Shown: positions 557-49,839, counted from the first letter of the stretch. The stretch: 64,000 nucleotides of DNA from an uncultured Verrucomicrobiae bacterium (GCA_963761705.1 CAVXHK010000001.1:1283140-1347139); one strand, 5' to 3'. Notes: generated by a model not told the origin, from the letters alone. Numbers and translations are program-made.

Positions 557-1408
557 ATGGGACTCAAAACATTTCGCCCGCTCACTCCGGCCAGCCGCTT
601 CAAGGCGCTGCCTGACTTCGCGGAGATTACCAAATCCGAACCGGAGAAGAGCCTTCTGCGGAAAATTAAGAAATCTGGCGGCCGCAACAACAATGGTCGA
701 ATGACCTCACGTCACCGTGGTGGCGGGCACAAGCGGCGCTACCGGATGATCGATTTCAAGCGCAAGACTCGCGACGTGGTCGCTGAGGTTATCGGCATCG
801 AATACGATCCGAATCGCTCCGCGCGCATCGCTCTTCTCAAGTATCCGGACGGCGAGAAGGCGTACATCCTGGCGCCAGTCGGTCTGACTGCGGGGGGCAA
901 AGTCACCGCGGGTGAGAAGGCCGAACCCAAGCCAGGCAACGCGATGCCCATTCGCAAAATTCCTCTGGGCATCACGATTCACAATTTGGAACTCATTCCC
1001 GGCCGCGGAGCCCAGCTCGTCCGCAGCGCTGGAACCGGAGCCGTCATCGCGAGCCGCGAGGGCGAATACGCCAACGTTAAACTTGCTTCCGGCGAACTCC
1101 GCCGAATTCACGTCGAGTGCTACGCCACGGTCGGCCAAGTCGGCAACACCGACCACGAGAACGTCTCGAGTGGCAAGGCCGGACGCTCCCGCTGGCTCGG
1201 CAAGCGTCCGCACGTTCGTGGTATGGTCATGAACCCGATCGATCACCCGAACGGTGGAGGTAACGGCAAGTCGAAGGGTGGTGGTGGACGTCAGCACCCG
1301 GTCAGCCCATGGGGTCAGCTCGCGAAGGGCTACAAAACTCGAACCAAGCACAAACCCTCCGACCGCTTCATCGTCGAGCGCCGGAAGAACAAGTCAAAAT
1401 CCAAGTAA
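557..1408 (+). CDS. rplB: 50S ribosomal protein L2
   Basis: Track ORF 485..1408 trimmed to ATG 557 ([15 protein letters not shown]). Contains GGGHKRRYR and [13 protein letters not shown] motifs. Confidence 0.97.
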
Positions 1409-1411
1409 GCC

Positions 1412-1690
1412 ATGGCCCGTTCACTCAAAAAAGGTCCCTACGTTGACATGAAGCTTCTCGAGAAGATCGATAAGCTCAACGACACGAACACGAAGAAGCC
1501 CATCAAGACCTGGGCGCGTCGCTCGACCATCACGCCGGATTTCGTCGGTCACACTTTCAATACCCACAACGGCAAAACCTTCGTCCCGGTGTTCGTCACC
1601 GAGAACATGGTTGGCCACAAGCTCGGAGAGTTTTCGCCCACGCGGATCTTCAAACGGCACGGATCTCACACCGCCAAGGTGAGCAAGTAA
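1412..1690 (+). CDS. rpsS: 30S ribosomal protein S19
   Basis: 92 aa; [12 protein letters not shown]...[27 protein letters not shown]. Confidence 0.97.
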
Positions 1691-1697
1691 GCGGAGG

Positions 1698-2486
1698 ATG
1701 AAACTGGCCGCGATAGCGCCAGTCCTTGGCGTCCTCGCGTTGGCACACGTTGCCAGCGGGCAGGACAATCGATCTTTGACAAATTCTGAATCACGCGTCC
1801 CGGAAGTTATTTCGGGAGTTCGGACGGACGTGCCCAGCGGGGACGCGCCGATTTACGAGCGCTTGCTGCTGCTGCAAAACTCCGTCCAAGCTCTCACGAG
1901 CAGTCTCGCCAACGCCAACGCGGAAGCTGAGATGTTCAAGCGCCAGTCGGAAGAGCTTTCGTTGAAGTTGCAGGCCCTGGGGATTGACGGCTTGGACGGC
2001 AATACGTCTAAGATCGAGCAGCGGCTCATCGCAGCGGTTCGTGATCTGCGTAACTCCAAGAAGGAAAGCGCGGAGCTGCGAACTCAAATGATCGAGTTGA
2101 CAGAGACCGTTCTAACGCTTATCCAATCCGCCCGCGAAATCCCGGTCGATGACCGAATGGCTGCGGAAACGCAACTCCGCAAGGCGAAGGAATTGCTGGG
2201 ATCCTCCCCCGAGGCGGTCCCGGCGCAATCGTTCGCTGCAAGTCTCTCCGATGGGATGGTGACCGAACTGAAGGACGAATGGTCCCTCGTCGTCGCCAAC
2301 ATCGGCGACAGGCAGGGAGTAAAGATCGGCATGCCTTTCGAGGTGTGGCGCGACGGCAATCGGATCGGAGAGGTCAAAGTCGTCGACGTCCGTGAGTCGA
2401 TCAGCGGTGCAGTGATTCAGAATTTAGACAACGAGAAGACTCCGATCAAAGTCGGAGACCGACTTCGGGTGAACGCCCGAAACTAA
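1698..2486 (+). CDS. secreted coiled-coil protein of unknown function, inserted inside the S10 operon
   Basis: 262 aa. Signal-peptide-like N-terminus (MKLAAIAPVLGVLALAHVASG), then a long heptad-like helical region, then a C-terminal beta-rich segment (GVKIGMPFEVW...IKVGDRLRV). Starts 8 nt after the rpsS stop and ends 32 nt before rplV. Confidence 0.7.
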   Translation: MKLAAIAPVLGVLALAHVASGQDNRSLTNSESRVPEVISGVRTDVPSGDAPIYERLLLLQNSVQALTSSLANANAEAEMFKRQSEELSLKLQALGIDGLDGNTSKIEQRLIAAVRDLRNSKKESAELRTQMIELTETVLTLIQSAREIPVDDRMAAETQLRKAKELLGSSPEAVPAQSFAASLSDGMVTELKDEWSLVVANIGDRQGVKIGMPFEVWRDGNRIGEVKVVDVRESISGAVIQNLDNEKTPIKVGDRLRVNARN

Positions 2487-2518
2487 ACAAATTTACAGCA
2501 ACTCAAACTCAGACACTC

Positions 2519-3007
2519 ATGCAGGTTCAATCGACATATCGCTACGCGAAGATCTCGGCATTCAAGGCACGCGAAGTGACCAAGGAAATTCAGGGCCTGC
2601 CCGCGTCCGAAGCTCTCAGTCTTCTTCAGTTTACGCCCAAGAAGGCGGCTGTTCTCATCATCAAGACACTCAAAAGCGCGATAGCCAACGCCGAGAACAA
2701 CAACAACCTGCGCAGTGAGAGTCTTGTCGTTCAGGAGGCCGTTGTTGGCGAGGGGCCGACGCTGAAGCGCTTCCGCCCGAAGGCTCGGGGTAGCGCTGGT
2801 GCGATCCGCAAACGGTCCTCGCACATCAAAATTACCCTCACCGACGAGATCGAAATCACACGGCGCGAGCCAAAGAGCACCAAGAAAAAGACGAAGTCGG
2901 CCAAGCCAGCCAAGTCGTCGAAAACCGTGGAGGCTGAGCCAGTTGAACCAGTGGCAGCCGCTCCAACCGAACAGACGCCCGCCGTGGCCGAGGAAACCAA
3001 AAGCTAA
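2519..3007 (+). CDS. rplV: 50S ribosomal protein L22 with K/A/P/E-rich C-terminal extension
   Basis: 162 aa. The N-terminal ~115 aa are L22-like (ISAFKAREVTKEIQG...GPTLKRFRPKARG). The tail is KSTKKKTKSAKPAKSSKTVEAEP... Confidence 0.93.
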   Translation: MQVQSTYRYAKISAFKAREVTKEIQGLPASEALSLLQFTPKKAAVLIIKTLKSAIANAENNNNLRSESLVVQEAVVGEGPTLKRFRPKARGSAGAIRKRSSHIKITLTDEIEITRREPKSTKKKTKSAKPAKSSKTVEAEPVEPVAAAPTEQTPAVAEETKS

Positions 3008-3010
3008 GTT

Positions 3011-3694
3011 ATGGGACAAAAAGTCAACCCAATTGGATTTCGCCTCCCGGTCACTCGTGACTGGAGATCGAAGTGGTATGCTTCCAAGAAGGAACTCAGT
3101 GAGTTTCTTTTCATTGACGCGAAGATTCGCAAGCACCTCACGAACCGCCTCAAGACGGCAGCGATGTCGAAAATTCTGATCGAGCGTGCCTGGAACACGG
3201 TCCGGATCACCATCTTCACCGCCCGCCCCGGCGTGGTGATCGGTCGGAAGGGTTCGGAAATCGAAAACATGACTCAGGAGATCGCCAACATTGCTGGTGG
3301 CAAGCAGGTCAAGATCGATATCGTGGAGATCAAGAAGCCGGAAATTGATGCTCAACTTGTTGCCGAGAACGTTGCCAGCCAGTTGTCCCGTCGGATCTCG
3401 TTCCGTCGCGCGATGAAGCGCTCGGTGCAGACGGGAATGGACATGGGTGCTGAGGGCATCAAGGTCCGCATCTCGGGCCGCCTCGGTGGTTCGGAGATCG
3501 CCCGGACGGAATGGTACCGCGAGGGGACGATCCCTCTGCACACCCTTCGGCAGCCGATTGATTACGGATTCTGCGAAGCCGACACCACCGCCGGTAAGAT
3601 CGGCGTCAAGTGCTGGGTCGTGAAGCCCGCCGAGAAGGAAGAAGAGAAGCCTGCCGTGCCACCGCCCGCACCGGAGCCAATCGCCGCTAGCTAA
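3011..3694 (+). CDS. rpsC: 30S ribosomal protein S3
   Basis: 227 aa; MGQKVNPIGFRL..., with KH and S3-C regions. Confidence 0.97.
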   Translation: MGQKVNPIGFRLPVTRDWRSKWYASKKELSEFLFIDAKIRKHLTNRLKTAAMSKILIERAWNTVRITIFTARPGVVIGRKGSEIENMTQEIANIAGGKQVKIDIVEIKKPEIDAQLVAENVASQLSRRISFRRAMKRSVQTGMDMGAEGIKVRISGRLGGSEIARTEWYREGTIPLHTLRQPIDYGFCEADTTAGKIGVKCWVVKPAEKEEEKPAVPPPAPEPIAAS

Positions 3695-8676: not shown

Positions 8677-10176
8677 ATGATTTCCGCCTTTACCAATATT
8701 TTCAAAATTCCGGAACTCCGGCAACGCGTGTTGTTCACGCTCGCAATGATTGTGATCATGCGGGTCGGAGCGGCGATCACGACGCCGGGTGTGAACGCCG
8801 AAGTTCTTCGCGTTTGGTTTCAGAGCGCCGGGGAAAACACGGGAGGCGGCGTCGCTGCTTTGTTCAACCTTTTCAGCGGTGGGGCGCTGCAGGCGGCGGC
8901 AATTTTTTCGTTGGGCATTATGCCCTACATCTCAGCGTCGATCATGATGCAGCTTCTCACGGCGGTGATCCCGCAGCTGGGCAAGCTCTCCCGCGAAGAC
9001 GGCGGGCGTCAAAAAATTACCCAATACACCCGGTACGCGACGCTTGCGCTCTGCGTTTTCCAGGGTTATCTGCTCGCGCTGTCCCTTGAAAACCCGGCGG
9101 CGAACCCATTCCTTCCGGGGATCACGGACACGATCACCAGACTTGGTATTCCTCTGGTCTCCGACCCGGGAATGGGCTTCCGGCTTCTGACCGTGCTGAC
9201 AATGAGTGCGGGAACGATGTTCCTCATGTGGTTGGGCGATCAGATCACGGATCGAGGAATCGGCAATGGCGTGTCGCTCATCATTACGGTCGGCATCCTC
9301 GCGCAGCTCCCGGCTGGCTTGATTCAGGCGTGGCGCACCTTTGTTCCTACCGGCGACGGGGCAGCACAGGTGAGTCCGGTGGTTCTCGTTCTCATGGTGG
9401 CGTTCCTGTTAATCGTCATTGCGGCGGTGATCGCGGTCACGCAGGCACAGCGAAAGATCGCGATTCAATACGCGAAGCGCGTGGTCGGCCGAAAGGTTTA
9501 CGGCGGGCAGACGCAATACATGCCGCTCAAGGTGAATTACGCGGGCGTGATGCCGATCATTTTTGCTCAGGCAATTCTGCTGTTCCCGTCGACAATCGCG
9601 CAGATGGCGTTTCCACAGTCAGATTTGGCACGTTCGATTGCGGACGCGCTGACAGTAGGTTGGCCGCATTACGTCTTCTTCGGCGCGATGATCTTCTTCT
9701 TTTCTTACTTCTGGGTCGCTACGCAATTCCAGCCTTCGCAGATCGCCGACGATTTGAAGAAATACGGCGGATTCATCCCAGGGGTGCGACCGGGCAAGCC
9801 GACAGCCGAGTTCCTCGATTACACGATGACGCGTCTGACGTTTGCAGGTGCTATTTTCCTGACCATCATTGCCGTTCTCCCCCAGCTGCTGAGCCGATGG
9901 CTCCAAGTCCCCTACATGACCGCGCAGTTCTTCGGTGGAACGGGACTGCTCATTATTGTTGGCGTCGTGCTCGACACCATGCGGCAGATCGAAACGCACT
10001 TGCTCCAGCGCCATTACGACGGATTCCTTCGGAAGGGGAAAATTCGTGGATCTCGCGAGACTCGCCGGATGGGCTCAACCAACGTCATTTCCGACAGCTC
10101 GCTGGTTTGGATCTACGTTGCGATCGCAGTCATCGTCCTCGCCGGAATGACGGTGTGGCTCGCTTCCGGACAATAG
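8677..10176 (+). CDS. secY: preprotein translocase subunit SecY (with ~45-aa C-terminal extension containing an extra hydrophobic helix)
   Basis: 499 aa. SecY hallmarks are present (LFSGGALQAAAIFSLGIMPYISASIMMQLL, ten recognisable TM segments). The tail is LVWIYVAIAVIVLAGMTVWLA. Confidence 0.97.
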   Translation: MISAFTNIFKIPELRQRVLFTLAMIVIMRVGAAITTPGVNAEVLRVWFQSAGENTGGGVAALFNLFSGGALQAAAIFSLGIMPYISASIMMQLLTAVIPQLGKLSREDGGRQKITQYTRYATLALCVFQGYLLALSLENPAANPFLPGITDTITRLGIPLVSDPGMGFRLLTVLTMSAGTMFLMWLGDQITDRGIGNGVSLIITVGILAQLPAGLIQAWRTFVPTGDGAAQVSPVVLVLMVAFLLIVIAAVIAVTQAQRKIAIQYAKRVVGRKVYGGQTQYMPLKVNYAGVMPIIFAQAILLFPSTIAQMAFPQSDLARSIADALTVGWPHYVFFGAMIFFFSYFWVATQFQPSQIADDLKKYGGFIPGVRPGKPTAEFLDYTMTRLTFAGAIFLTIIAVLPQLLSRWLQVPYMTAQFFGGTGLLIIVGVVLDTMRQIETHLLQRHYDGFLRKGKIRGSRETRRMGSTNVISDSSLVWIYVAIAVIVLAGMTVWLASGQ

Positions 10177-10186
10177 AACGAGTTTC

Positions 10187-10846
10187 GTGAAAAGCCGGAT
10201 TGTGCTCTTGGGTCCGCCCGCTTCCGGCAAGGGAACGCAAGCGGAACTACTGGCCCGAGCGTGCGGAATCCCCTCGGCTTCGACTGGAGCGATGATGCGG
10301 GAAGAGAGGGCGCGTGAAACGGAACTTGGTCGCGAGATGGAACGATGGACGAAGGAGGGACGCTTGTTTCCCGACGACGTCGCGGTCCGAATCCTGATTA
10401 ACTGGCTGGACGAGGGGCACTGGGGTGCCTTTTTGCTCGATGGGTTTCCACGAACACTTGGTCAGGCAAAGGCCTTCGATGAAGAATTGGATCGGCGTGG
10501 TGGAAAGATCGATCTGGCGATCAACCTCACGTTGAACGACGACGTAATCAGGGATCGTATTCTGAACCGGGTGACTTGTGTGCGCTGTGGGGCAACCTAC
10601 GGAATGACGTTCCATCGTCTGAAGCCTGGCGACCTCTGCGAGGACTGTGGCGCACGGCTGGAGCGGCGGTCGGATGACACGCCGGAGACCCTGGACCAAC
10701 GCCTCCAGGAGCACCGACGGCACACGAATCCGGTGATCGACTACTATCGGAAATGCGAAATTCTCAACGACGTGGACGCTTCGGCGGGACGGGACGCCGT
10801 TTTCGCGGCAATCTCACAGACCCTTGGTTTGGAGGTGACGAAGTGA
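10187..10846 (+). CDS. adk: adenylate kinase (Cys4 zinc-lid type)
   Basis: GTG start. P-loop GPPASGKGTQ. Lid region CVRCG...CEDCG. Confidence 0.95.
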   Translation: MKSRIVLLGPPASGKGTQAELLARACGIPSASTGAMMREERARETELGREMERWTKEGRLFPDDVAVRILINWLDEGHWGAFLLDGFPRTLGQAKAFDEELDRRGGKIDLAINLTLNDDVIRDRILNRVTCVRCGATYGMTFHRLKPGDLCEDCGARLERRSDDTPETLDQRLQEHRRHTNPVIDYYRKCEILNDVDASAGRDAVFAAISQTLGLEVTK

Positions 10847-11610
10847 TTCCTCGAAAATCGGCTTCGGAAATTGAAAAAATGCGTCGCTCCGGGGAGTTGG
10901 CGGCAGAAATTCTGAATCGCGTCGCGGATCAGATCGCGCCGGGCGTCACCACGCAGGAGTTGGACGATTTAGCTGGCCAGCTGATCGCCGAAGCCGGGGC
11001 CAAGAGCGCTTTCAAAGGCTACCGGGGCACGTTTCCGGGTGAGCTCTGCATCTCCGTAAACGATGAAGTTGTTCACGGATACGGGGGACCGCGCAAGATT
11101 GCTTACGGCGATATCGTGACCCTCGACTGTGGAGTGATCTTCAACGGTTACATCGGCGACACGGCGTCGACGATTCCCGTCGGCATCATCGATCCGGCGA
11201 CGGAGAAGTTGCTGCACGTGACGGAGCAAATCCTCATGGAAGCGATTCAGCTGGCGCGCGGCGGCAGGCGCCTGGGCGACATGTGTTCGTTCATCGAGGC
11301 CGAGACAGTGCGGCACGGGTATTCCGTGGTGCGTGAGTTCGTTGGGCACGGTGTCGGGCGGAAATTGCACGAGGACCCGCAGGTTCCCAACTACGGCAAA
11401 CGGGGGACCGGGCCGAAGCTCAAGTCGGGCATGACCCTGGCGGTCGAGCCGATGATCAACCTGGGAGCGGCGGAGGTCGAGGTGCTCGACGATAAGTGGA
11501 CGGTGGTGACCCGCGATGGATCGCCTTCGGCGCACTTCGAGCACACAATTTTAATCACCGATGGAGCACCAGAAGTGTTGACATCAAAACGGAGATCGCT
11601 ATTGAAATAA
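10843..11610 (+). CDS. map: type I methionine aminopeptidase
   Basis: Track ORF 10753..11610 trimmed to GTG 10843, which overlaps the adk stop (GTGA). Motifs: SASEIEKMRRSG, HGYGG, FVGHGVG, EHTILIT. Confidence 0.93.
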   Translation: MIPRKSASEIEKMRRSGELAAEILNRVADQIAPGVTTQELDDLAGQLIAEAGAKSAFKGYRGTFPGELCISVNDEVVHGYGGPRKIAYGDIVTLDCGVIFNGYIGDTASTIPVGIIDPATEKLLHVTEQILMEAIQLARGGRRLGDMCSFIEAETVRHGYSVVREFVGHGVGRKLHEDPQVPNYGKRGTGPKLKSGMTLAVEPMINLGAAEVEVLDDKWTVVTRDGSPSAHFEHTILITDGAPEVLTSKRRSLLK

Positions 11611-29823: not shown

Positions 29824-31842
29824 TCAGAATGCCAAGCCGACGGTGAAGTGGATCGCGCCGATGGCTTCGCCGGAGCGCGGGGCCGGATTGAGAGCGGCGT
29901 CGAGGCGGATGGGGCCGATGGGGAGGTCGTAGCGAAGGCCGGCTCCGATGCCGGTGCGGAGGATTCCAAACTCGGAAGAGGTCTGCCCGACGCTGCCGGC
30001 GTCGACGAAGACGGCGGCCTTGAGCGAGTCGACGATGGGGACGACGTATTCCAGGTTGAAGACCGTGTAGGTCTGGCCGCCGGTCGGGTAGCCGTTGTTG
30101 TGGGGACCGAGTTCGCGGTCGGCGAAACTGCGGACGGAGGAAGCCCCGCCGTTGAAGAAGCGTTCGTCGATGGGGACGGACGAGTTGCCTTCGGTCGGGA
30201 TCATGATTCCGCCGCGGGCACCGAAGGCGAGGAGGGTGTTGCCGAGGGGGAGGTAATAGGCCGCGCGGGCGGCGAAACGGGCGAAACTGACCTCGCTGCC
30301 GAGGGCGCGGGTGGCGAAGTCGGCGGTGGTGCCGAGGACGAAGCCCTGGTCGGGGTTGAGCGGATTGTCGCGGGTATCGTAGACGGAGGTGAGCCCGATG
30401 CTGTTGGCGAGGTAGGGAGTGCGCCCGATGAGATTGTCGCTGATGCCCTCGGCTTCGACGGAGACGCCTTTGGCGAGGAGGAAGACCGAGGCGGTGAGCC
30501 GGGGGGTGAGTGTCCAGGTGAGTTCGGGGCGGAGGGCGAGTTCGCTCTTCGTGTAGCCTTCGAGGCGGCGGTTGAGGACGGTCGCTCGGAAAGTGAGCGC
30601 GAGGTCGTCCCGGTCGAGGAACCACGGGTCTTCGAGGGTGAGGTCGGCTCCGAAGGTGCGTTGGGTCGCGTCGATGGAGGCGGTGAAGGAGCGACCCGTG
30701 CCGAAGAGGTTGCGCTCGACGAAGCGGATGCCACCGCCCGCGCCTTCGAAGGTGCCGTAGCCGAGAGAGAAGCCGACCTCTCGACTCGGGGCGGGTTCGT
30801 ATTCGATGGCGAGATCGACTTCGTTGGTTGTGGGATCGGGAAGTTGGCGGAGGCGGAGTTGGTCGTAGAGGCCGGTGCCGAGCTGGCGTTGGAAGCGGGT
30901 GTTGAGGGCTGCGGGATCGTAGGGGCGATCGGTGAGGGAGGCGAAGCGACGGCGAACGAAGCGGGGTGGGAGGCTGGGGTCGCCGGGCGGGTGATCGGCG
31001 GTGACGGTGCCGAAGCGGAAGGGTGGACCTGGCGTGACCTGGATGGTGACGGGGACCTCCTCTGCGAGGATGGGTTGACGCGATTTCGCCCGGATGGAAA
31101 TTGCGGGTCCTCGCCGTGCGGTGGCTTTTGCCTGGTAGTGGCCGGCTTTTTGAAATTCGTAGGCGACCCTTTCCTCGATGAGACGGAGGCGGTTTGAGCT
31201 GTAGGGTTGGGTGGTGAGGTCGGCGAGCGATTCGCGGAGAGTTGCGATGGGAACGGCGCTGCTGCCGACGATGGCGATCGGGCCGAAGGTGTAAGGGGGA
31301 CCTTCGGAGATGGTGACGGTGGCGCTGGCGTCGGTTCGGTCGTTGGAGAGGGCGACGGTCGGGGTGGTGATCTCGACGTCGAGGTAGCCGTCGGAGAGGT
31401 AGAGGTCGCGGAGGCGATCGACGCCTTCCGCCAGTTTGTCGGGAACGTAGGGGAGGTCGTCGCCGGTGACGTTCTCGCGGGTGGGGCCGAGGAGGAAGTC
31501 GGCGAGTTTTTTTTCGTCGTAGGCGGTGGCGCCGAGGAAGGTCGTTGTGGTGAGCTGCGTGCGAGGGCCTTCGGTGATGTCGAGGGTCAGGGTGTCGGCG
31601 GTGATCTGCGGGGTGACCGTGGCTTCGGTGAAGCCATTGTCTAGGTAGGTGAGTCCGGTGAAGTAGCTGAGGTCGTCGGCGCGGGCGGGGGTGACGCCGG
31701 TGGATTCGATCTGGGCGATTTGTCCGGCGACTTTTTCGCGGAGGGACGCGGTGGGGAGTTTTTCGTTGCCGACAAACTGAACGGTGGCGGCGTGGGCTTC
31801 GAACGTCAGGACGACGAGTGCGGTGAAGACGCGGTGGTTCAT
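29824..31842 (-). CDS. tamA: Omp85/BamA-family outer membrane protein (TamA-like)
   Basis: 672 aa with a signal peptide, POTRA-like repeats and a beta-barrel ending ...HFTVGLAF. The start overlaps the tamB stop. Confidence 0.88.
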   Translation of the reverse strand: MNHRVFTALVVLTFEAHAATVQFVGNEKLPTASLREKVAGQIAQIESTGVTPARADDLSYFTGLTYLDNGFTEATVTPQITADTLTLDITEGPRTQLTTTTFLGATAYDEKKLADFLLGPTRENVTGDDLPYVPDKLAEGVDRLRDLYLSDGYLDVEITTPTVALSNDRTDASATVTISEGPPYTFGPIAIVGSSAVPIATLRESLADLTTQPYSSNRLRLIEERVAYEFQKAGHYQAKATARRGPAISIRAKSRQPILAEEVPVTIQVTPGPPFRFGTVTADHPPGDPSLPPRFVRRRFASLTDRPYDPAALNTRFQRQLGTGLYDQLRLRQLPDPTTNEVDLAIEYEPAPSREVGFSLGYGTFEGAGGGIRFVERNLFGTGRSFTASIDATQRTFGADLTLEDPWFLDRDDLALTFRATVLNRRLEGYTKSELALRPELTWTLTPRLTASVFLLAKGVSVEAEGISDNLIGRTPYLANSIGLTSVYDTRDNPLNPDQGFVLGTTADFATRALGSEVSFARFAARAAYYLPLGNTLLAFGARGGIMIPTEGNSSVPIDERFFNGGASSVRSFADRELGPHNNGYPTGGQTYTVFNLEYVVPIVDSLKAAVFVDAGSVGQTSSEFGILRTGIGAGLRYDLPIGPIRLDAALNPAPRSGEAIGAIHFTVGLAF

Positions 31843-34800
31843 TTGAGCCGGAGGACGTAACGCAGGCGGCCGCGGAAGTCGCCGTTGACATCGAGGTCGC
31901 CGATGAGGTGGAAGGCGGGGGTGAGTCGGTAACGGGCGGAGAGGCTTTGTTTGCCGGTCTTGGGGTCGATGGCGCCGACTTCGAGATCGAATTTGTCACG
32001 GAAACTGTCCGTTTCGCCGGGTTTGGCGGGGAAGAATCTCTGGTAGAGCTGTTGGAGAAGGAGGAGGGCGGCGCGTCCGGCGATGACGTCGGTGCCGCCC
32101 GTGAGTTCCTTGGCGGTTGCGCCGGTGGAGAGGAGGGCGACGATGTCCTCGGGGGGGAGCGGGGGGTTGCTGGTGAAGGTGACTTCGGGGTCGTTGGCGG
32201 TGCCAGAAATGAGAACGGTGATCACGTAGTCGCGGATCTCGGAGCGTCCGCGGAGATTGAGAACGGGGTCGAGCGGATCGGCGGGGTTGAAGTAAACGCT
32301 GCCATTGGCGATATCCAGGGTGCTGAACGGCAGGGTGAGGATGAGGTCCTCGACGTTCGCGCTGCCTTCGAGGCGTGGCGCGAGGCCGGTGCCGGTGAGG
32401 CGGAGATCGGCGGTTGCGCGGCCATTCGCGAGGTTGCCGCGGATGAGGAAGGGCGAGTCGGTGCCAATGGTGACGTCGAATTGCCAATCGCGGATCGGTG
32501 GGTTGGGGAAACTGAGGCGGGGCGGATCAGCGGACGGGGCTTGGGGGGCTTTGCGTTTGCCGGGTTGGCCGAAGGGGAGAACGACGATCTGCTTGAAGAG
32601 GCGGCTGTCGATGAGACCGAGGTGGCCCGAGAGTTTGGCGGAGTCGGGCGGGCCGGTGAGCGTGAGGTTGGCGTTCGCTCGCGCGAGGAGGTCGGGGCTG
32701 CGGGCGAGGAGGAGGGATTGCCCGTCGAAGGTGAAGTCCAGCTGAGGAGATTCCGGGTCGGTCAGATCGGCGAAGCCGGTGAGGGTGATCTGACCGCCGG
32801 AGACGTTACCGGTGAAGTTCCGGATGGCGATCTTTTCGCGGGAGAGATCGAGGCGGGCGTCGACATTGGTGACTTCGGGAAGTTCGTCGGCGGCGAGAGC
32901 GAGGCGCTTGATCTGCAGGGTGGCGGCGCCGGTGGGCACGGGTTTCTGGAGGGTTCCGCCGACTTCGATGCGGGCGGAGGCGTTGCCTTCGACGAAGCTG
33001 ATGGCCGGTGCGAAGGTCGGGATCAAGGCGAGATCAATCCCGGGGACGCCGATGCGGAGATTGATGGGCGTGTCGGGATCGAGGGGTTCGCCGGGAATGA
33101 AGGGGAAGCTGCCATTGATGGTGACGGGTTCGAGGCGGCGTTGTTGAAAGGTGGCGGCGAGACGGGCGTCGCCTTCGGCGACGGAGAGGCGGAGATCGAG
33201 CTGGGCGGGTTCGATCCGGGTGAGTTGCTCCGGCTGGAGGTCGGTGGCCGTGAGGTGAAGGTCGGCGACGAGGGTCGTGAGGGTGCCCTTGGCGGTGAGG
33301 TTGAGTTGGGCGGCACCGAGTAGAGGTGGGGCGGGTTGGTTCGCGATGGCGGCGAGCTGGGTGACGGTTAGTTCGGGGGTGGAGACGGCGAGATCCAGGG
33401 GGCGGTCGCGGGGGATAGGTTGGTCGTTGTTGTTCAAATCAAGGGGGAGGGTGACGTGGCCGGTGAGGATGCGTTGGCCGCGAAGATCGGCGGTGAGGGT
33501 GGGAATGGTGAGTTCGGTCGGGGTGTAGGTGCCGACGGCGGTCGCGTCGAAGTCGGCGATCTGGTCGGTGCGGGCGTCGGTGAGGGTGAGCGCGAATTCG
33601 CCGGAGTGGTTGGTGTTCTCGACTTCACCGGAACCGGACCAGGTGAGCGCAAGCTGGCCGCCGAGGTTGATGGGGTTGCGTTCGGGAGGGACGAGCGCGG
33701 TGAGATCGGCGAGGTCGATGGTGAGTTGGCCGCGGTAGGCGTAGGGGGCGGTGAGGTCGGCGGTGCCGCTGGCAGTGATGGCGTTGGCGGGGCCGAGGTT
33801 GATTTCGAAGGTGCGGACGTTCGCGACGTTGTCGGCGATGGGTGCGTCGATGGTGATGGCGGGAATGGTGTAGCCTCGAGCGGAAAGGTTCGTGGCGGTG
33901 ACGTGGAGGCCGCCTTGGAAGGCTTGGTTTTCCCGGTGGATGTCGGCGTCGACTTTCAGGGAACCGGAGAGGACGGTGCCGCGGGTATCCCGGACGAAGT
34001 CCTCAAGGCGGGGGGCGTCGATCTCGAGTTTCAGATCGAGGAGGTCGAGGTTGACCCGGGTTGGATCGGTGGGGACTTCGTAGCTGCCGACGAGGCGGAC
34101 GAAATTGCCTTGGTAATTGAGTTCGAGTTTTTCGAGTGCGACGGATTTCTCGGCGGAGCTGAGTTCGATGATGGCCTCGTCGGCTTCGTAGTTTTGGTAG
34201 GTGATCGTGGCGGCGCGTCCGCCGAGACGGGTGGTGAGGTTGGTCGTGATGGGTTCGCTCGCGCCGGGCGGCGGGAGTTTTTTCGAGAACGTGACGGCGA
34301 GGTCGGCGTTGGCGAGGCGAAGGTCCTGGAAGTCGAGTCGGCGGGCTTCGACCTTGAGGTTGGCGCTGAGGTTGGGGGCGTTGTAATCGAGTCGACCGGA
34401 GCCGGTGATGGTGCCTAGGGCGAGGGGAGCGACGCCGGGGACGAGGGTGGAGAGGTCGGGGGCGTCAAGGGTGATCGTGCCTGCGTAATTGTCGGGCGGA
34501 AGGTTGGCGATGGTGGCTGGAAGGTTCGAGACGAGTTGGCCGGTGAGGGTGTTGACGTCGCGGCGGAGGTCGCGGAGGTCGATCCGGGCGCGGCCGTCGG
34601 CCAGGGTGAAAACGGCAAGGAGATGATCGACGCGGGGTTGGTCGAGCTGGAGGTCGGTGAATTCGGCGCGGCCCTCTCCGGTCCACGTGAGGGGGCGGAA
34701 GAGTTCGCCTTCGTAGTTGAGGGTCAGATCGGCGATGGTGCCGGTCGGGGCGGGGACGAGGTTGAGAAAGGTGCCGACGCGGTCGAGTTCGATGCCGGTG

Positions 34801-35621
34801 ATCTTGAGGCGGAGGCTGGAATGGTTGGTCTCGTAGATATCGTGGATGGCGATGTCGAGGTGGGCGGTGCCGCCGAAGCCGGAGACGTCGGCGGCCAGGC
34901 CGAGACGGCTTTCGGCGAGGTGGGAGGCGTCGAAATTGAACCGATTGATGGTGATCCCGGGACCGACGGCGAGGTCGGTGAGGATGAGGTTGCGGTCCGT
35001 GAAGGTGGTGCGGCCCTCGAGGTTCTCGAAGGTCGGGGAGCCCGGGGCCTGGAAGCGTCCGACGCGGAGGGTGCCGGGGCGGTCGGGGAGGAGAAGGAGA
35101 GTGAAGCCGGTGAAGGTAAAGTCGCCGTTGGCGGAGCGGGAGATGAAGCTGAAGTTGGTAATCTCGACCCGCTCGGGAAAGAGGAGGGGGAACTTTAAGG
35201 TTTCCAGGTTTTGGGGGTTTGAAGTTTTGGGGTTCCGGCGTTTTTGCGGGCGGGGGGTGAATTTTGATTGGTCGATCTCCAGGTCAAAGTTGGTGAGGCG
35301 AATGGATTTCAGGAGACCCGGGTAGCCATCTTTGACCCAACCGAGGAGGCTGTACTGGAGGCCGATCTCGCCGATGGTGAGTTTGCGGATCGGGCTGTCG
35401 GGGTCCGGGTCGGCGACGACGTTGGTGACGCGAAGGGTCGTAAAGATCGAGCCGCCGAGTTCGTAAGTGAGGCGGAGTTGCTGGTCCGCGGCGGTGCGGA
35501 CGAGAAGACGACGGGTGAGTTCGAAGACGAGGGGGCGGTGGAAAGCGAAGAGGGTCGCGACGAGTGCGAGGAGGGTAAGGATGGGCCAGCGAAGTCGGCG
35601 GAGGAGACGGGGGACGGGCAC
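31839..35621 (-). CDS. tamB: translocation and assembly module protein TamB (AsmA-like, DUF490 C-terminus)
   Basis: 1260 aa. N-terminal TM anchor, a long beta-rich repetitive body, and coupling to the Omp85 gene. Confidence 0.8.
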   Translation of the reverse strand: MPVPRLLRRLRWPILTLLALVATLFAFHRPLVFELTRRLLVRTAADQQLRLTYELGGSIFTTLRVTNVVADPDPDSPIRKLTIGEIGLQYSLLGWVKDGYPGLLKSIRLTNFDLEIDQSKFTPRPQKRRNPKTSNPQNLETLKFPLLFPERVEITNFSFISRSANGDFTFTGFTLLLLPDRPGTLRVGRFQAPGSPTFENLEGRTTFTDRNLILTDLAVGPGITINRFNFDASHLAESRLGLAADVSGFGGTAHLDIAIHDIYETNHSSLRLKITGIELDRVGTFLNLVPAPTGTIADLTLNYEGELFRPLTWTGEGRAEFTDLQLDQPRVDHLLAVFTLADGRARIDLRDLRRDVNTLTGQLVSNLPATIANLPPDNYAGTITLDAPDLSTLVPGVAPLALGTITGSGRLDYNAPNLSANLKVEARRLDFQDLRLANADLAVTFSKKLPPPGASEPITTNLTTRLGGRAATITYQNYEADEAIIELSSAEKSVALEKLELNYQGNFVRLVGSYEVPTDPTRVNLDLLDLKLEIDAPRLEDFVRDTRGTVLSGSLKVDADIHRENQAFQGGLHVTATNLSARGYTIPAITIDAPIADNVANVRTFEINLGPANAITASGTADLTAPYAYRGQLTIDLADLTALVPPERNPINLGGQLALTWSGSGEVENTNHSGEFALTLTDARTDQIADFDATAVGTYTPTELTIPTLTADLRGQRILTGHVTLPLDLNNNDQPIPRDRPLDLAVSTPELTVTQLAAIANQPAPPLLGAAQLNLTAKGTLTTLVADLHLTATDLQPEQLTRIEPAQLDLRLSVAEGDARLAATFQQRRLEPVTINGSFPFIPGEPLDPDTPINLRIGVPGIDLALIPTFAPAISFVEGNASARIEVGGTLQKPVPTGAATLQIKRLALAADELPEVTNVDARLDLSREKIAIRNFTGNVSGGQITLTGFADLTDPESPQLDFTFDGQSLLLARSPDLLARANANLTLTGPPDSAKLSGHLGLIDSRLFKQIVVLPFGQPGKRKAPQAPSADPPRLSFPNPPIRDWQFDVTIGTDSPFLIRGNLANGRATADLRLTGTGLAPRLEGSANVEDLILTLPFSTLDIANGSVYFNPADPLDPVLNLRGRSEIRDYVITVLISGTANDPEVTFTSNPPLPPEDIVALLSTGATAKELTGGTDVIAGRAALLLLQQLYQRFFPAKPGETDSFRDKFDLEVGAIDPKTGKQSLSARYRLTPAFHLIGDLDVNGDFRGRLRYVLRLK

Positions 35622-35697: not shown

Positions 35698-39414
<3,717 letters not shown>

Positions 39415-47580: not shown

Positions 47581-49839
47581 GTGACTGGGATCTTTCATCA
47601 TTTGATCGTTCGGCCCCGGACGTGCTTGGCGATCGGGGCGCTCCTGACGCTCGCTCTCGGCTTGGGAGTCGTCCGGCTGCAGATTGATAATTCCACGAGC
47701 GGCTTGTTTTTGGACGACGATCCGGACGTTGGCTATTGGGGTGACGTGCGGGCTAATTTCGGCCCGGACCCGGATCTGTTCGTCATCGTGCGGAGCGGGG
47801 ATCTGTTTGGCGGCGGGGCGCTGGGAGCGGCGAGGGAATTGGCGGCGGCGGTGGCGGCGGTGCCCGGGGTGCGGCGGGCGGTGAGTCTTTTTAACGTCCG
47901 GACGATGCGCGAGGAGACATTCGAGGTCGGCGGGCGGAGCTACCAACGGGTCGCACCCGGAACGGTGCTGGCCCGGCTCCCGGCAACGGTTGCGGAATCG
48001 AAGCGGGTGAGGATGGAGATTCTCGGGGACTCCGTGCTGCGCGACACGTTGGTCAATGGCGCGGGTAACGCGATGGTCGTGGGGCTGGAGATCGACGTTT
48101 CGCCCGGGGGCGGATCGACCGAAGAAGCCGTCGTGGCTGCGGTGGTGGCGACGACCAAGGCGCTGACAACGACTTTGGAGGCTGCCGGGTTGGAGGTCGA
48201 AGTCTACGGGCGCGCTTTCGTCAAAGCGGCGATCACGGAGTCGATCTGGGAAAACTTGGCGCTGCTCGGGCCGGTCGCGTTGGTGGTGGTGCTGGGGATC
48301 ATCCTGGCGGCGTTTCGGTCGGTCGTCGCGATGGCGCTGCCGCTGCTGACGGGGGTGACGAGCGTGTTGGCGACGCTGGGGTTGATGGGTTATCTCGGGA
48401 TCGCGATGACGCCGATCTCTTCGACGGTCGTGGTGCTCGTCCTCGTGATCGGATGCGTGGAGGACATTCATCTGGTGGCGGGTTACGCGCGGGGGATCCG
48501 GGCCGGGCGGGAGCGGATCGAGGCCGTGCGGGCGCTCGGGGAGACGACGATCCCCGCGTCCGTGCTGGCGGTGCTCACAACGGTGCTGGGTTTCCTGGCG
48601 ATTGTCCCCAGTCCGGTTCCGCAGTTACGCGAATTTGCGGTTGCGTGCGCGGCCGGGGTGCTCATTAACTTCGTGCTCACGCTGCTGTTCGTTCCAGCGC
48701 TGTTGGGGCTGCTGCCGATCCCGCGGGCCTTTCGACGGACGAGTTCGGTCGGCGGGCGGGTGACGGAAGGCTGCGGGCGGATCCTGCGGGCTCGCGGGTG
48801 GGTGCTGGGTGGATTTGCGGTGTCGGCTGCCGTGGCGGGGTTGGGGGTCGCGCGGCTGGAAACTGACACCGATTACCTTCGGTTTTTCCCGGCGGATTCT
48901 CCCGTTAACGAGATCGCCGAACGGGTGTCGAACGACTTCGGCGGGAGCGCGGTTTTTTCGGTTGCGGTGGAGACGGAGCGGGCGGACGGGATCTACGAGT
49001 GGGAGACCTTCCGGGCGCTGAACGCGTTCAGCGGGCGGCTGGAGGAGCGGTTCGGCCACGCGCTGAGCGTGGGGGATCTGCTGCGTGAACTTCCGCGCGA
49101 TCCGCCGACGTCGCAGGCGGACTTGGACGAGCTGATTGCCTTGCTCCCTCGGTCGTTACTCTCGCCGTTTGTCGATCATGATGGCTCTCGGGCGCTGATC
49201 CGGGTGCGTTCGTCGAGCTCGGGGTCGAAGGGGATGCGATTGGACGCGGAGGCGGTGAAGGCGCTTGCCGATGAGGTTTTGCCCGCGGGGATCGAGGTGC
49301 GGATCTCGGGCGAGTTGCCGTTGCTCCACCGATTTGCGGATGAAGTTGTGGGTGGGTTGGTGCAGGGTCTGGCGCTGCTGCTGGCCGCCGTGGGGCTGGT
49401 CTTCGGGCTGGCGTTCCGTTCGTGGCGGTGCGGGGCAATCGGAGTGGTGGTCAATTTTTTCCCTTCGGTGGTGACGCTCGGCTTGATGGGTTGGATGGGT
49501 ATCCCGCTGGGGGTGGGGACATTTGCCATCGCCATCGTGGCGCTGGGGATCAGTGCCGACGACACGCTGCACTTCCTGGTGCGGCAGCGGGCGGAGCGGC
49601 GGCGGGGCGGGCCGCCGAACGGGGCTGTCGCGGTAGCCTTCGCGACGGAACTCCAACCCGTCCTCGTGACGACGGTAGCGGTGACGGTCGGGTTTCTGGT
49701 GCTCGGGCTGAGTTCGCTCGCGCTGCACCGCGAGGCAGCGGTCTTGTATGCGGTCGCGTTCGGGTCGGCGCTCGTGGCGGACTTGTTGCTATTACCCTGC
49801 CTTTTGGCGGGGCGGGATCAGTCGAGAAATTTGTCGTAG
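47581..49839 (+). CDS. MMPL/RND-superfamily lipid exporter (HpnN/MmpL-like)
   Basis: 752 aa with two 6-TM bundles, each preceded by a soluble loop. GTG start. Confidence 0.82.
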   Translation: MTGIFHHLIVRPRTCLAIGALLTLALGLGVVRLQIDNSTSGLFLDDDPDVGYWGDVRANFGPDPDLFVIVRSGDLFGGGALGAARELAAAVAAVPGVRRAVSLFNVRTMREETFEVGGRSYQRVAPGTVLARLPATVAESKRVRMEILGDSVLRDTLVNGAGNAMVVGLEIDVSPGGGSTEEAVVAAVVATTKALTTTLEAAGLEVEVYGRAFVKAAITESIWENLALLGPVALVVVLGIILAAFRSVVAMALPLLTGVTSVLATLGLMGYLGIAMTPISSTVVVLVLVIGCVEDIHLVAGYARGIRAGRERIEAVRALGETTIPASVLAVLTTVLGFLAIVPSPVPQLREFAVACAAGVLINFVLTLLFVPALLGLLPIPRAFRRTSSVGGRVTEGCGRILRARGWVLGGFAVSAAVAGLGVARLETDTDYLRFFPADSPVNEIAERVSNDFGGSAVFSVAVETERADGIYEWETFRALNAFSGRLEERFGHALSVGDLLRELPRDPPTSQADLDELIALLPRSLLSPFVDHDGSRALIRVRSSSSGSKGMRLDAEAVKALADEVLPAGIEVRISGELPLLHRFADEVVGGLVQGLALLLAAVGLVFGLAFRSWRCGAIGVVVNFFPSVVTLGLMGWMGIPLGVGTFAIAIVALGISADDTLHFLVRQRAERRRGGPPNGAVAVAFATELQPVLVTTVAVTVGFLVLGLSSLALHREAAVLYAVAFGSALVADLLLLPCLLAGRDQSRNLS

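Follow-up and report, generated by a model that had tools for sequence, protein, structure and literature searches.

The internal gene order of the S10 operon is among the most stable gene strings in bacteria. Non-ribosomal genes are already known from ribosomal-protein operons: secY, adk, map and infA, all of known function, are near-universal passengers at the distal end of the spc operon. We analysed a stretch of 64,000 nucleotides (nt) from an uncultured Verrucomicrobiae bacterium (GCA_963761705.1, CAVXHK010000001.1:1283140-1347139; hereafter the window), in which a further gene stands inside the S10 string itself, at the junction between rpsS (S19) and rplV (L22). We call X the 262-amino-acid (aa) protein that this gene encodes (window 1698–2486, + strand). 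Apart from X, the string L2-S19-L22-S3 is canonical in the window, with Pfam E-values of 1e-35 to 1e-52 for the ribosomal identities around it. Like the spc passengers, X is co-directional with its neighbours, tightly packed and non-ribosomal, and like secY, an envelope/export gene, it is predicted to belong to the envelope. It also has the other marks of a passenger gene, since the gaps on either side are short, its position is conserved and no intervening promoter or terminator was found. Unlike the spc passengers, X lies within the S10 string and is restricted to Verrucomicrobiota as far as taxon labels show.

Which proteins does X resemble? CpoB/YbgF-type periplasmic adaptors begin with a signal peptide that is cleaved off, followed by a coiled coil and, at the C-terminus, a protein-interaction domain. 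CpoB ends in TPR repeats and belongs to the tol-pal cluster, whereas X ends in a beta-barrel; no sequence or fold match of CpoB/YbgF to X turned up in the searches that we ran. MreC (PF04085) shares with X the order of its elements (hydrophobic N-terminal segment, coiled coil, barrel), but it carries a transmembrane segment and two beta-barrels, whereas X has a predicted cleavable signal peptide, a single barrel and a different genomic context. FlgT-C-like barrels are already known as periplasmic modules. The C-terminal domain of FlgT (PF16538; 3W1E, 8Z5N) is a small periplasmic beta-roll/barrel, the location also predicted for X, and within the Vibrio H-ring protein it acts, by way of MotY, as a scaffold for the flagellar T ring (PMC13521929). 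The FlgT fold superposes on the X barrel (TM-score 0.68–0.69) and its Pfam family matches 61 of 98 X domains, with the window X below the gathering score. FlgT, however, also has N and M domains and a flagellar context; X has neither domain, its N-terminal 185 aa being signal peptide and helices, and shows a long coiled coil instead and an S10 context at all loci. TsaP (3JC8 chain Ta), associated with the type IV pilus secretin, gave the best PDB profile match to X and has motifs in common with it. In the periplasm it serves as an accessory protein and docks through its barrels on a larger assembly, two FlgT-C-like domains forming a belt around the PilQ secretin (bioRxiv 10.1101/2020.05.29.123786). 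In addition to these two domains TsaP contains a LysM domain, whereas X has one barrel, a coiled coil that TsaP lacks and no LysM in Pfam scans of the window protein and 36 full-length members. TsaP is tied to the pilus, but X has no link to pilus genes.

An earlier note on this DNA had described a non-ribosomal 262-aa open reading frame (ORF) of no recognised family at the S19/L22 junction, and the reading frame is indeed there, with counted gaps of 7 nt between the rpsS stop codon and the ATG of X and 32 nt between the X stop codon and the rplV ATG. X is acidic, carries a signal peptide pattern and matches no ribosomal family. No curated family reaches threshold in Pfam, NCBIfam or PDB sequences: searched at full length against all three, X gave nothing significant, only coiled-coil noise and a single hint of FlgT_C (E=0.16).

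X is nevertheless a genuine protein-coding gene under purifying selection and not a spacer, as its homolog number, invariant columns and low ratio of non-synonymous to synonymous substitution rates (dN/dS) demonstrate. In a collection of 5.8 billion proteins, from which the exact window sequence is absent, we found 1,104 homologs (E<=1e-3); almost every one of them is 255–290 aa long and aligns over the whole query. When a library of 50%-identity representatives was searched with a profile, 535 clusters passed E<=1e-10, of which 221 also passed the stricter cut of E<=1e-30, and for the most divergent members the A2 profile gave 36 matches. When 36 members were aligned, down to 43% identity (alignment A1), 31 invariant columns were spread along the protein. 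Relative to its closest relatives, for which dS is unsaturated, X evolves with a dN/dS of 0.09–0.14, rising to about 0.25 at larger distance; the flanking ribosomal genes stand at 0.01–0.1. Length and architecture are kept across hundreds of species. Thus, relatives with the same junction carry X under constraint, which rules out a non-coding spacer.

How widespread and how fixed is the insertion? Scanning GTDB with one genome per species, we detected relatives in at least 380 species. The best 80 of these all belong to Chthoniobacterales (Terrimicrobiaceae, Chthoniobacter, Udaeobacter and 'Spartobacteria'), and 70 further loci came from metagenomes scanned with a profile (A4) built on divergent members. 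We then scored 155 loci by tblastn with the S19, X and L22 of the window, which carries out the comparison of S10 operons among relatives that had been proposed for this junction. The order S19-X-L22 was found in 137 of the 155, one neighbour was seen and the other side cut by a contig end in 17, and one was an exception; of the 138 loci with both flanks visible, 137 therefore have X enclosed by rpsS and rplV. Five highly divergent members from the representative library, looked up one by one, are all located between S19 and L22, and divergent loci on long enough contigs have full S10-spc operons around X. The ribosomal proteins of the most divergent carriers are distant from those of the window (S19 59–70% and L22 52–62% identical), with Udaeobacter at 68–79% identity. 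Because the ribosomal proteins of these most divergent carriers are only 52–70% identical to the window's, sequence comparison indicates that the insertion predates several deep verrucomicrobial lineages; it is not local, being common to at least 380 species and to lineages far more divergent than the order of the window.

Save for one contig, all carriers have Verrucomicrobiota labels, namely Chthoniobacterales and metagenome-assembled genomes (MAGs) labelled Verrucomicrobiales, Verrucomicrobiae or Verrucomicrobiota bacterium; for the divergent clades only such MAG labels were obtained and no cultured genus. The one contig, labelled 'Nitrospirota bacterium' (JBLMXH010000179.1), holds a typical Udaeobacter-like L2-S19-X-L22-S3 locus, and its label is probably a binning or labelling error. 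The one exception to the order is locus L027 in a Terrimicrobiaceae MAG (L027:4745-5911; contig JBGTGQ010000073.1), where L2-S19-X is followed by a gene for DNA polymerase III delta-prime (holB; Pfam DNA_pol3_delta2, E=1.6e-44). Its similarity to a close relative of normal order (L009) stops exactly at the X stop codon, and the spacer after X is rich in repeats with TCGAAAATC-like units. Either the assembly is chimeric here or the operon broke recently; X stays with S19 in this sole rearranged case. On another metagenome contig (P0261), the called protein runs from the C-terminus of X into L22 and then meets a frameshift. The fusion most likely arose from sequencing errors, and it shows independently that X adjoins rplV.

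The N-terminus of X looks like a Sec signal peptide, as had been noticed beforehand. Of the 311 full-length members, 95% carry a hydrophobic core of 12 residues that starts near residue 9, 90% have K/R ahead of this core and none has a later transmembrane-like segment. Consensus N-termini end in AxA followed by Q, in a Sec-type layout of n-, h- and c-regions, and these features hold though the N-terminal sequence itself is unconserved in distant clades. In the window protein cleavage is predicted between MKLAAIAPVLGVLALAHVASG and QD. The window X has no Cys at all, position +1 included, and no lipobox, and therefore is not a lipoprotein. Thus, on these patterns, X is very probably exported by a Sec-type route. 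Right after the predicted cleavage site, a motif N-[RS]-S-L-[TS] (window 1761–1781, aa 22–28, QDNRSLT) is near-invariant in Chthoniobacterales and absent in distant X clades. We considered the N-x-S sequon in NRSLTNS as a glycosylation site, but there is no acidic residue at position -2. The mature protein has an isoelectric point (pI) of 5.0, the family median is 5.2 and 90% of members lie below 7, in contrast to pI values of 9.9–10.8 for S19, L22, L2 and S3. X is not a ribosomal protein, because its mature form is acidic.

The C-terminal domain gave a confident model. Built with AlphaFold2 (AF2) from a domain-only alignment of 98 sequences, which was also the basis of the profile searches, it forms a six-stranded barrel over aa 186–258 with a predicted local distance difference test score (pLDDT) of 91 and a predicted TM-score (pTM) of 0.81, in line with the small C-terminal beta domain that the sequence had suggested. 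Three independent lines of evidence connect this barrel to FlgT-C: (i) in Pfam scans of each member (E<=0.1), FlgT_C was matched by 61/98 members, with a best E-value of 6.5e-6, the MreC barrel core by 21/98 (best 5.5e-5) and no other family by more than 7/98; (ii) among PDB sequences the domain profile matched TsaP best (3jc8 chain Ta; E=4.8e-5); the alignment covers the FlgT-like C-terminal part of TsaP and shows the common motifs hVVxxGxxxGVxxGxxFxhxR and hGxhxVxxVxxxxSxxhh...GDR; and (iii) Foldseek placed two FlgT structures at the head of its list, 8z5n from the LPHT ring at rank 1 (E=1.1e-3, TM-score 0.69) and the crystal structure 3w1e at rank 2 (E=1.5e-3, TM-score 0.68). Each line falls below threshold by itself; on all three combined, the modelled barrel is best assigned as a FlgT-C-type beta-roll.

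The earlier note had likened the barrel to MreC and LpoB and proposed a Foldseek search. The likeness to MreC persists in a weaker form than that to FlgT_C and TsaP, the MreC structure 7eft appearing at rank 45 (TM-score 0.47, 26% identity over 57 columns), whereas LpoB drops out, as neither Pfam and NCBIfam nor the PDB, by sequence or by fold, gave a match to it, and the window protein has no lipobox Cys. Other candidates were rejected as well. Kinship with F1-ATPase N-terminal barrels amounts to a generic fold likeness without sequence support; the full-length model retrieved only such generic F1/FliI N-terminal barrels. A hairpin motif of 35 residues matched a MexC-like protein (E=3.8e-4), and NCBIfam HlyD scored E=0.5, but we rejected an HlyD/MFP adaptor on topology: in such adaptors an alpha-hairpin splits a lipoyl domain, and beta-barrel and membrane-proximal domains come after it, whereas the helices of X precede its beta domain and do not interrupt it. 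A PilZ-like (D/N)xSxxG, spotted by eye in VVDVRxxISGA, does not fit the register and has no Pfam PilZ match.

Between the signal peptide and the barrel lies a helical region with coiled-coil character. The full-length AF2 model is disordered to about residue 46 and continues with three helices and the beta domain (aa 186–258). In family-wide hydrophobicity profiles, hydrophobic residues occupy 80% of heptad a/d positions in helix 1 and 75% in helix 2, compared with 27–29% elsewhere (shuffle p<=0.0005). The two helices follow different registers and are separated by a conserved Gly loop. A heptad helix of about 150 aa had been read from the sequence; its coiled-coil character stands but its length comes down to about 118 aa (aa 50–167), with significant heptads in helices 1 and 2. 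The polar motifs LTxSLAxANxEAExFKR and EQRLLxAVRDL within the helices are unusually well conserved, as if the coiled coil made specific contacts and were more than a structural element. We found no family match to the helical region.

How is X expressed? Across 80 loci, the median distance from the S19 stop codon to the first in-frame X start is about 4 nt and that from the X stop codon to the L22 start is 24 nt. On the + strand of the first 8 kb of the window we found no terminator-like site, and a promoter scan of the same region gave promoter-like sites at or below shuffled expectation. X is likely co-transcribed with the S10 operon because terminator-like sites are missing from the + strand, the promoter scan stays at background and the junctions are tight; as judged from the spacing, it is probably also translationally coupled to S19. 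In three Udaeobacter-type loci (L049, L074 and L078), the X-rplV spacers are long, about 60–117 nt, and form hairpins that are strong (dG -22 to -37 kcal/mol, z -3.4 to -5.7) but differ in sequence between loci. Such hairpins could serve as intercistronic stabilisers or processing sites, or as attenuators uncoupling X from the ribosomal genes that follow.

From these data, we propose that X is a soluble periplasmic coiled-coil scaffold, exported by Sec, whose barrel docks on an envelope partner and which is expressed with the S10 operon, an interpretation that we hold to be somewhat better than evenly balanced. Export by Sec and removal of about aa 1–21 would release a soluble periplasmic protein. 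Helices 1 and 2, with the Gly loop between them, and helix 3 would make up a stalk or hairpin of coiled-coil type that is probably oligomeric. The FlgT-C-type barrel (aa 186–258) would act as a protein-docking module, a role suggested because FlgT-C-like domains are periplasmic docking modules in both FlgT and TsaP, so that X as a whole may serve as an envelope scaffold or tether on a periplasmic or outer-membrane partner. Read-through transcription of the S10 operon, together with the probable translational coupling to rpsS, would let the supply of X track ribosome synthesis, and the amount of X is likely below ribosomal-protein stoichiometry despite this supply.

Several observations weigh against this proposal: (i) every link to FlgT_C lies below curated or conventional thresholds, since Foldseek E-values are around 1e-3 and the window domain itself matches FlgT_C (PF16538) at E=0.013 and 16.3 bits, below the 27-bit gathering score; (ii) F1-type ATPase N-terminal barrels score nearly as well in Foldseek, just below FlgT; (iii) at full length, AF2 gave a low-confidence model (pLDDT 64, pTM 0.27), so that helix packing and oligomeric state are not fixed by it; (iv) no universal need for flagella or pili is known in the lineages with X, and a docking partner is thus not simply transferable from FlgT or TsaP; and (v) codon adaptation of X to the ribosomal genes of the operon is 0.54, against 0.66–0.75 in every ribosomal gene, and is close to the mean of the other ORFs in the window (0.57). 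Such ordinary codon adaptation argues against very high expression and weakens stoichiometric coupling. Translation of X is probably below ribosomal-protein stoichiometry on this measure; hence, of the earlier suggestion that X would be co-transcribed at ribosomal-protein levels, co-transcription is likely and the level is probably lower.

Could X instead be a divergent, single-barrel relative of MreC, a membrane-anchored scaffold of peptidoglycan synthases relocated into the S10 operon? The layout is alike (N-terminal hydrophobic segment, coiled coil, beta-barrel), and the 21 matches to the Pfam MreC core and the Foldseek hit to 7eft described above point the same way. However, FlgT_C was matched three times as often and FlgT took the first two fold ranks; X has one barrel of about 75 aa and not the two-barrel core, for which no match above the Pfam threshold was obtained; the small-x-small cleavage sites at its N-terminus do not suggest a stable anchor; and its genomic context is not mreB/mreD. 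Moreover, a survey of the PVC (Planctomycetes-Verrucomicrobia-Chlamydiae) group reported canonical MreC in verrucomicrobial proteomes (PMC5147048), the genomes that carry X not having been searched for a second MreC. We therefore regard an MreC-like identity of X as rather unlikely.

A different alternative is that the position itself is under selection. Co-synthesis with ribosomal proteins and co-translational export would either tether the S10 mRNA to the membrane (transertion) or fix the envelope-to-ribosome ratio, and we consider this improbable. The place of X has been kept in 137 of 138 loci across very deep divergence, S19-X coupling distances are extremely short, X remains with S19 in the only rearranged locus (L027) and another export-related gene, secY, has long been known as a passenger of the spc operon next door and is present here at 8677–10176. 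On the other hand, retention may reflect how difficult harmless excision from an essential operon is, the ordinary codon adaptation suggests an expression not matched to that of ribosomal proteins, and the strong X-rplV hairpins of the Udaeobacter-type loci could uncouple the two halves. In its strictest form, X, translated right after S19, would anchor the S10 mRNA and early ribosomal-protein synthesis at the cytoplasmic membrane and fix the ratio of envelope scaffold to ribosomes, which we likewise judge to have a small chance of being right.

That X is a cytoplasmic or membrane-anchored factor associated with the ribosome or its assembly, its hydrophobic N-terminus being an anchor or a start-codon artefact, is very improbable. 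Guilt by association with the S10 operon and the tight coupling to S19 speak for it, but the pI of mature X is 5.0 whereas that of ribosomal proteins is at least 9.9, its signal-peptide features are conserved with K/R on the N-side of the core (predicting the C-terminus outside), its only detectable domain relatives (FlgT, TsaP, MreC) are periplasmic and no RNA-binding or ribosomal family matched in Pfam or NCBIfam. Finally, that the ORF is non-functional, having arisen by chance in a long spacer or being an insertion in decay, as its lack of any curated family might suggest, is refuted to near certainty by its conservation (dN/dS 0.09–0.25, 31 invariant columns, architecture kept in hundreds of species).

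Coordinates of X, its parts, the surrounding S10 genes and other features of the window are listed in Table 1.

Table 1. Features of the X locus and of the remaining window (window positions; aa numbering refers to X).
Feature	Position	Strand	Basis or remark
L23	255–539	+	S10 operon segment
L2	~557–1408	+	S10 operon segment, upstream of S19
rpsS (S19)	1412–1690	+	Pfam Ribosomal_S19, E=2.2e-37; 5' of X wherever locus sequence suffices
rpsS-X spacer, 7 nt, GCGGAGG	1691–1697	+	Direct read; GGAGG touches ATG
X coding sequence, 262 aa, ATG start	1698–2486	+	ORF, homologs, dN/dS, mature pI
Predicted Sec signal peptide, aa 1–21	1698–1760	+	n-region/h-region/small-x-small pattern, family-wide
Low-confidence linker, aa 22–49, with NRSLTNS	1761–1844	+	S26 and L27 in >=90% of sequences of A1; pLDDT <50
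Helix 1, aa 50–93, LTxSLAxANxEAExFKR	1845–1976	+	AF2; heptad p<0.0005; invariant L66 T67 L70 A71 A77 E78
Helix 2, aa 103–144, EQRLLxAVRDL	2004–2129	+	AF2; heptad p=0.0005; invariant L110 A113 L117 E136
Helix 3, aa 150–167	2145–2198	+	AF2; invariant R153 E157 R161; heptad signal not significant
Six-stranded beta-barrel, FlgT-C/TsaP-like, aa 186–258	2253–2471	+	Domain model, Foldseek, Pfam, PDB profile
X-rplV spacer, 32 nt, A/C-rich, unstructured	2487–2518	+	Fold dG -0.1 kcal/mol, z=+1.4
rplV (L22), 162 aa, K/A/P-rich tail	2519–3007	+	Pfam Ribosomal_L22, E=1.3e-36
S3	3011–3694	+	S10 operon segment; then L16, L29, S17 and onward
secY	8677–10176		With adk and map, 8677–11610
ORF, 408 aa	12005–13231	-	No Pfam match at E<=1e-5
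ORF, 927 aa	14402–17185	-	No Pfam match at E<=1e-5
TamA-like Omp85/POTRA protein	29824–31842	-	Pair spans 29824–35621
TamB-like protein	31839–35621	-	Pair spans 29824–35621
MetH	35698–39414		
MMPL/RND-type transporter	47581–49839		
Type I polyketide/fatty-acid synthase-like ORF, 2,051 aa	52268–58423	+	KS-AT-DH-ER-KR-ACP
ORF, 475 aa	58854–60281	+	No Pfam match at E<=1e-5

L22 is long in these lineages; about 50 aa of the window's L22 form a C-terminal tail rich in Lys, Ala and Pro, and in a Verrucomicrobiales-labelled locus (L083:5825-6487) it reaches 220 aa with a weak HHH_5 match. The genes secY, adk and map come after the ribosomal genes. Farther along the window, the MMPL/RND-type transporter lies upstream of the large polyketide/fatty-acid synthase-like ORF, and the TamA-like and TamB-like proteins make up an outer-membrane assembly pair. 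Some of the three long ORFs that have no Pfam match may be wrong-strand artefacts in GC-rich DNA.

In the full-text literature, whose coverage leaves out most papers in subscription journals, we found no prior description of X or of an insertion between S19 and L22. Two things appear to be new: an architecture in which a signal peptide and a coiled coil precede one FlgT-C-like barrel and which belongs to no curated family, and the long-term residence of a gene inside the S10 string at this junction. An insertion kept at one junction over hundreds of species and several deep lineages is a rare genomic change, usable as a clade marker within Verrucomicrobiota. X is a conserved, probably well-expressed, predicted envelope protein in abundant soil bacteria (Chthoniobacterales, Udaeobacter), and knowing the partner on which it docks could bring to light an envelope structure peculiar to the organisms that carry it. 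If the position is functional, the locus would be a natural example of envelope and ribosome synthesis coupled via operon architecture; and if the position itself proved to be selected, the coupling of envelope and ribosome biogenesis would be hard-wired and specific to a deep verrucomicrobial clade.

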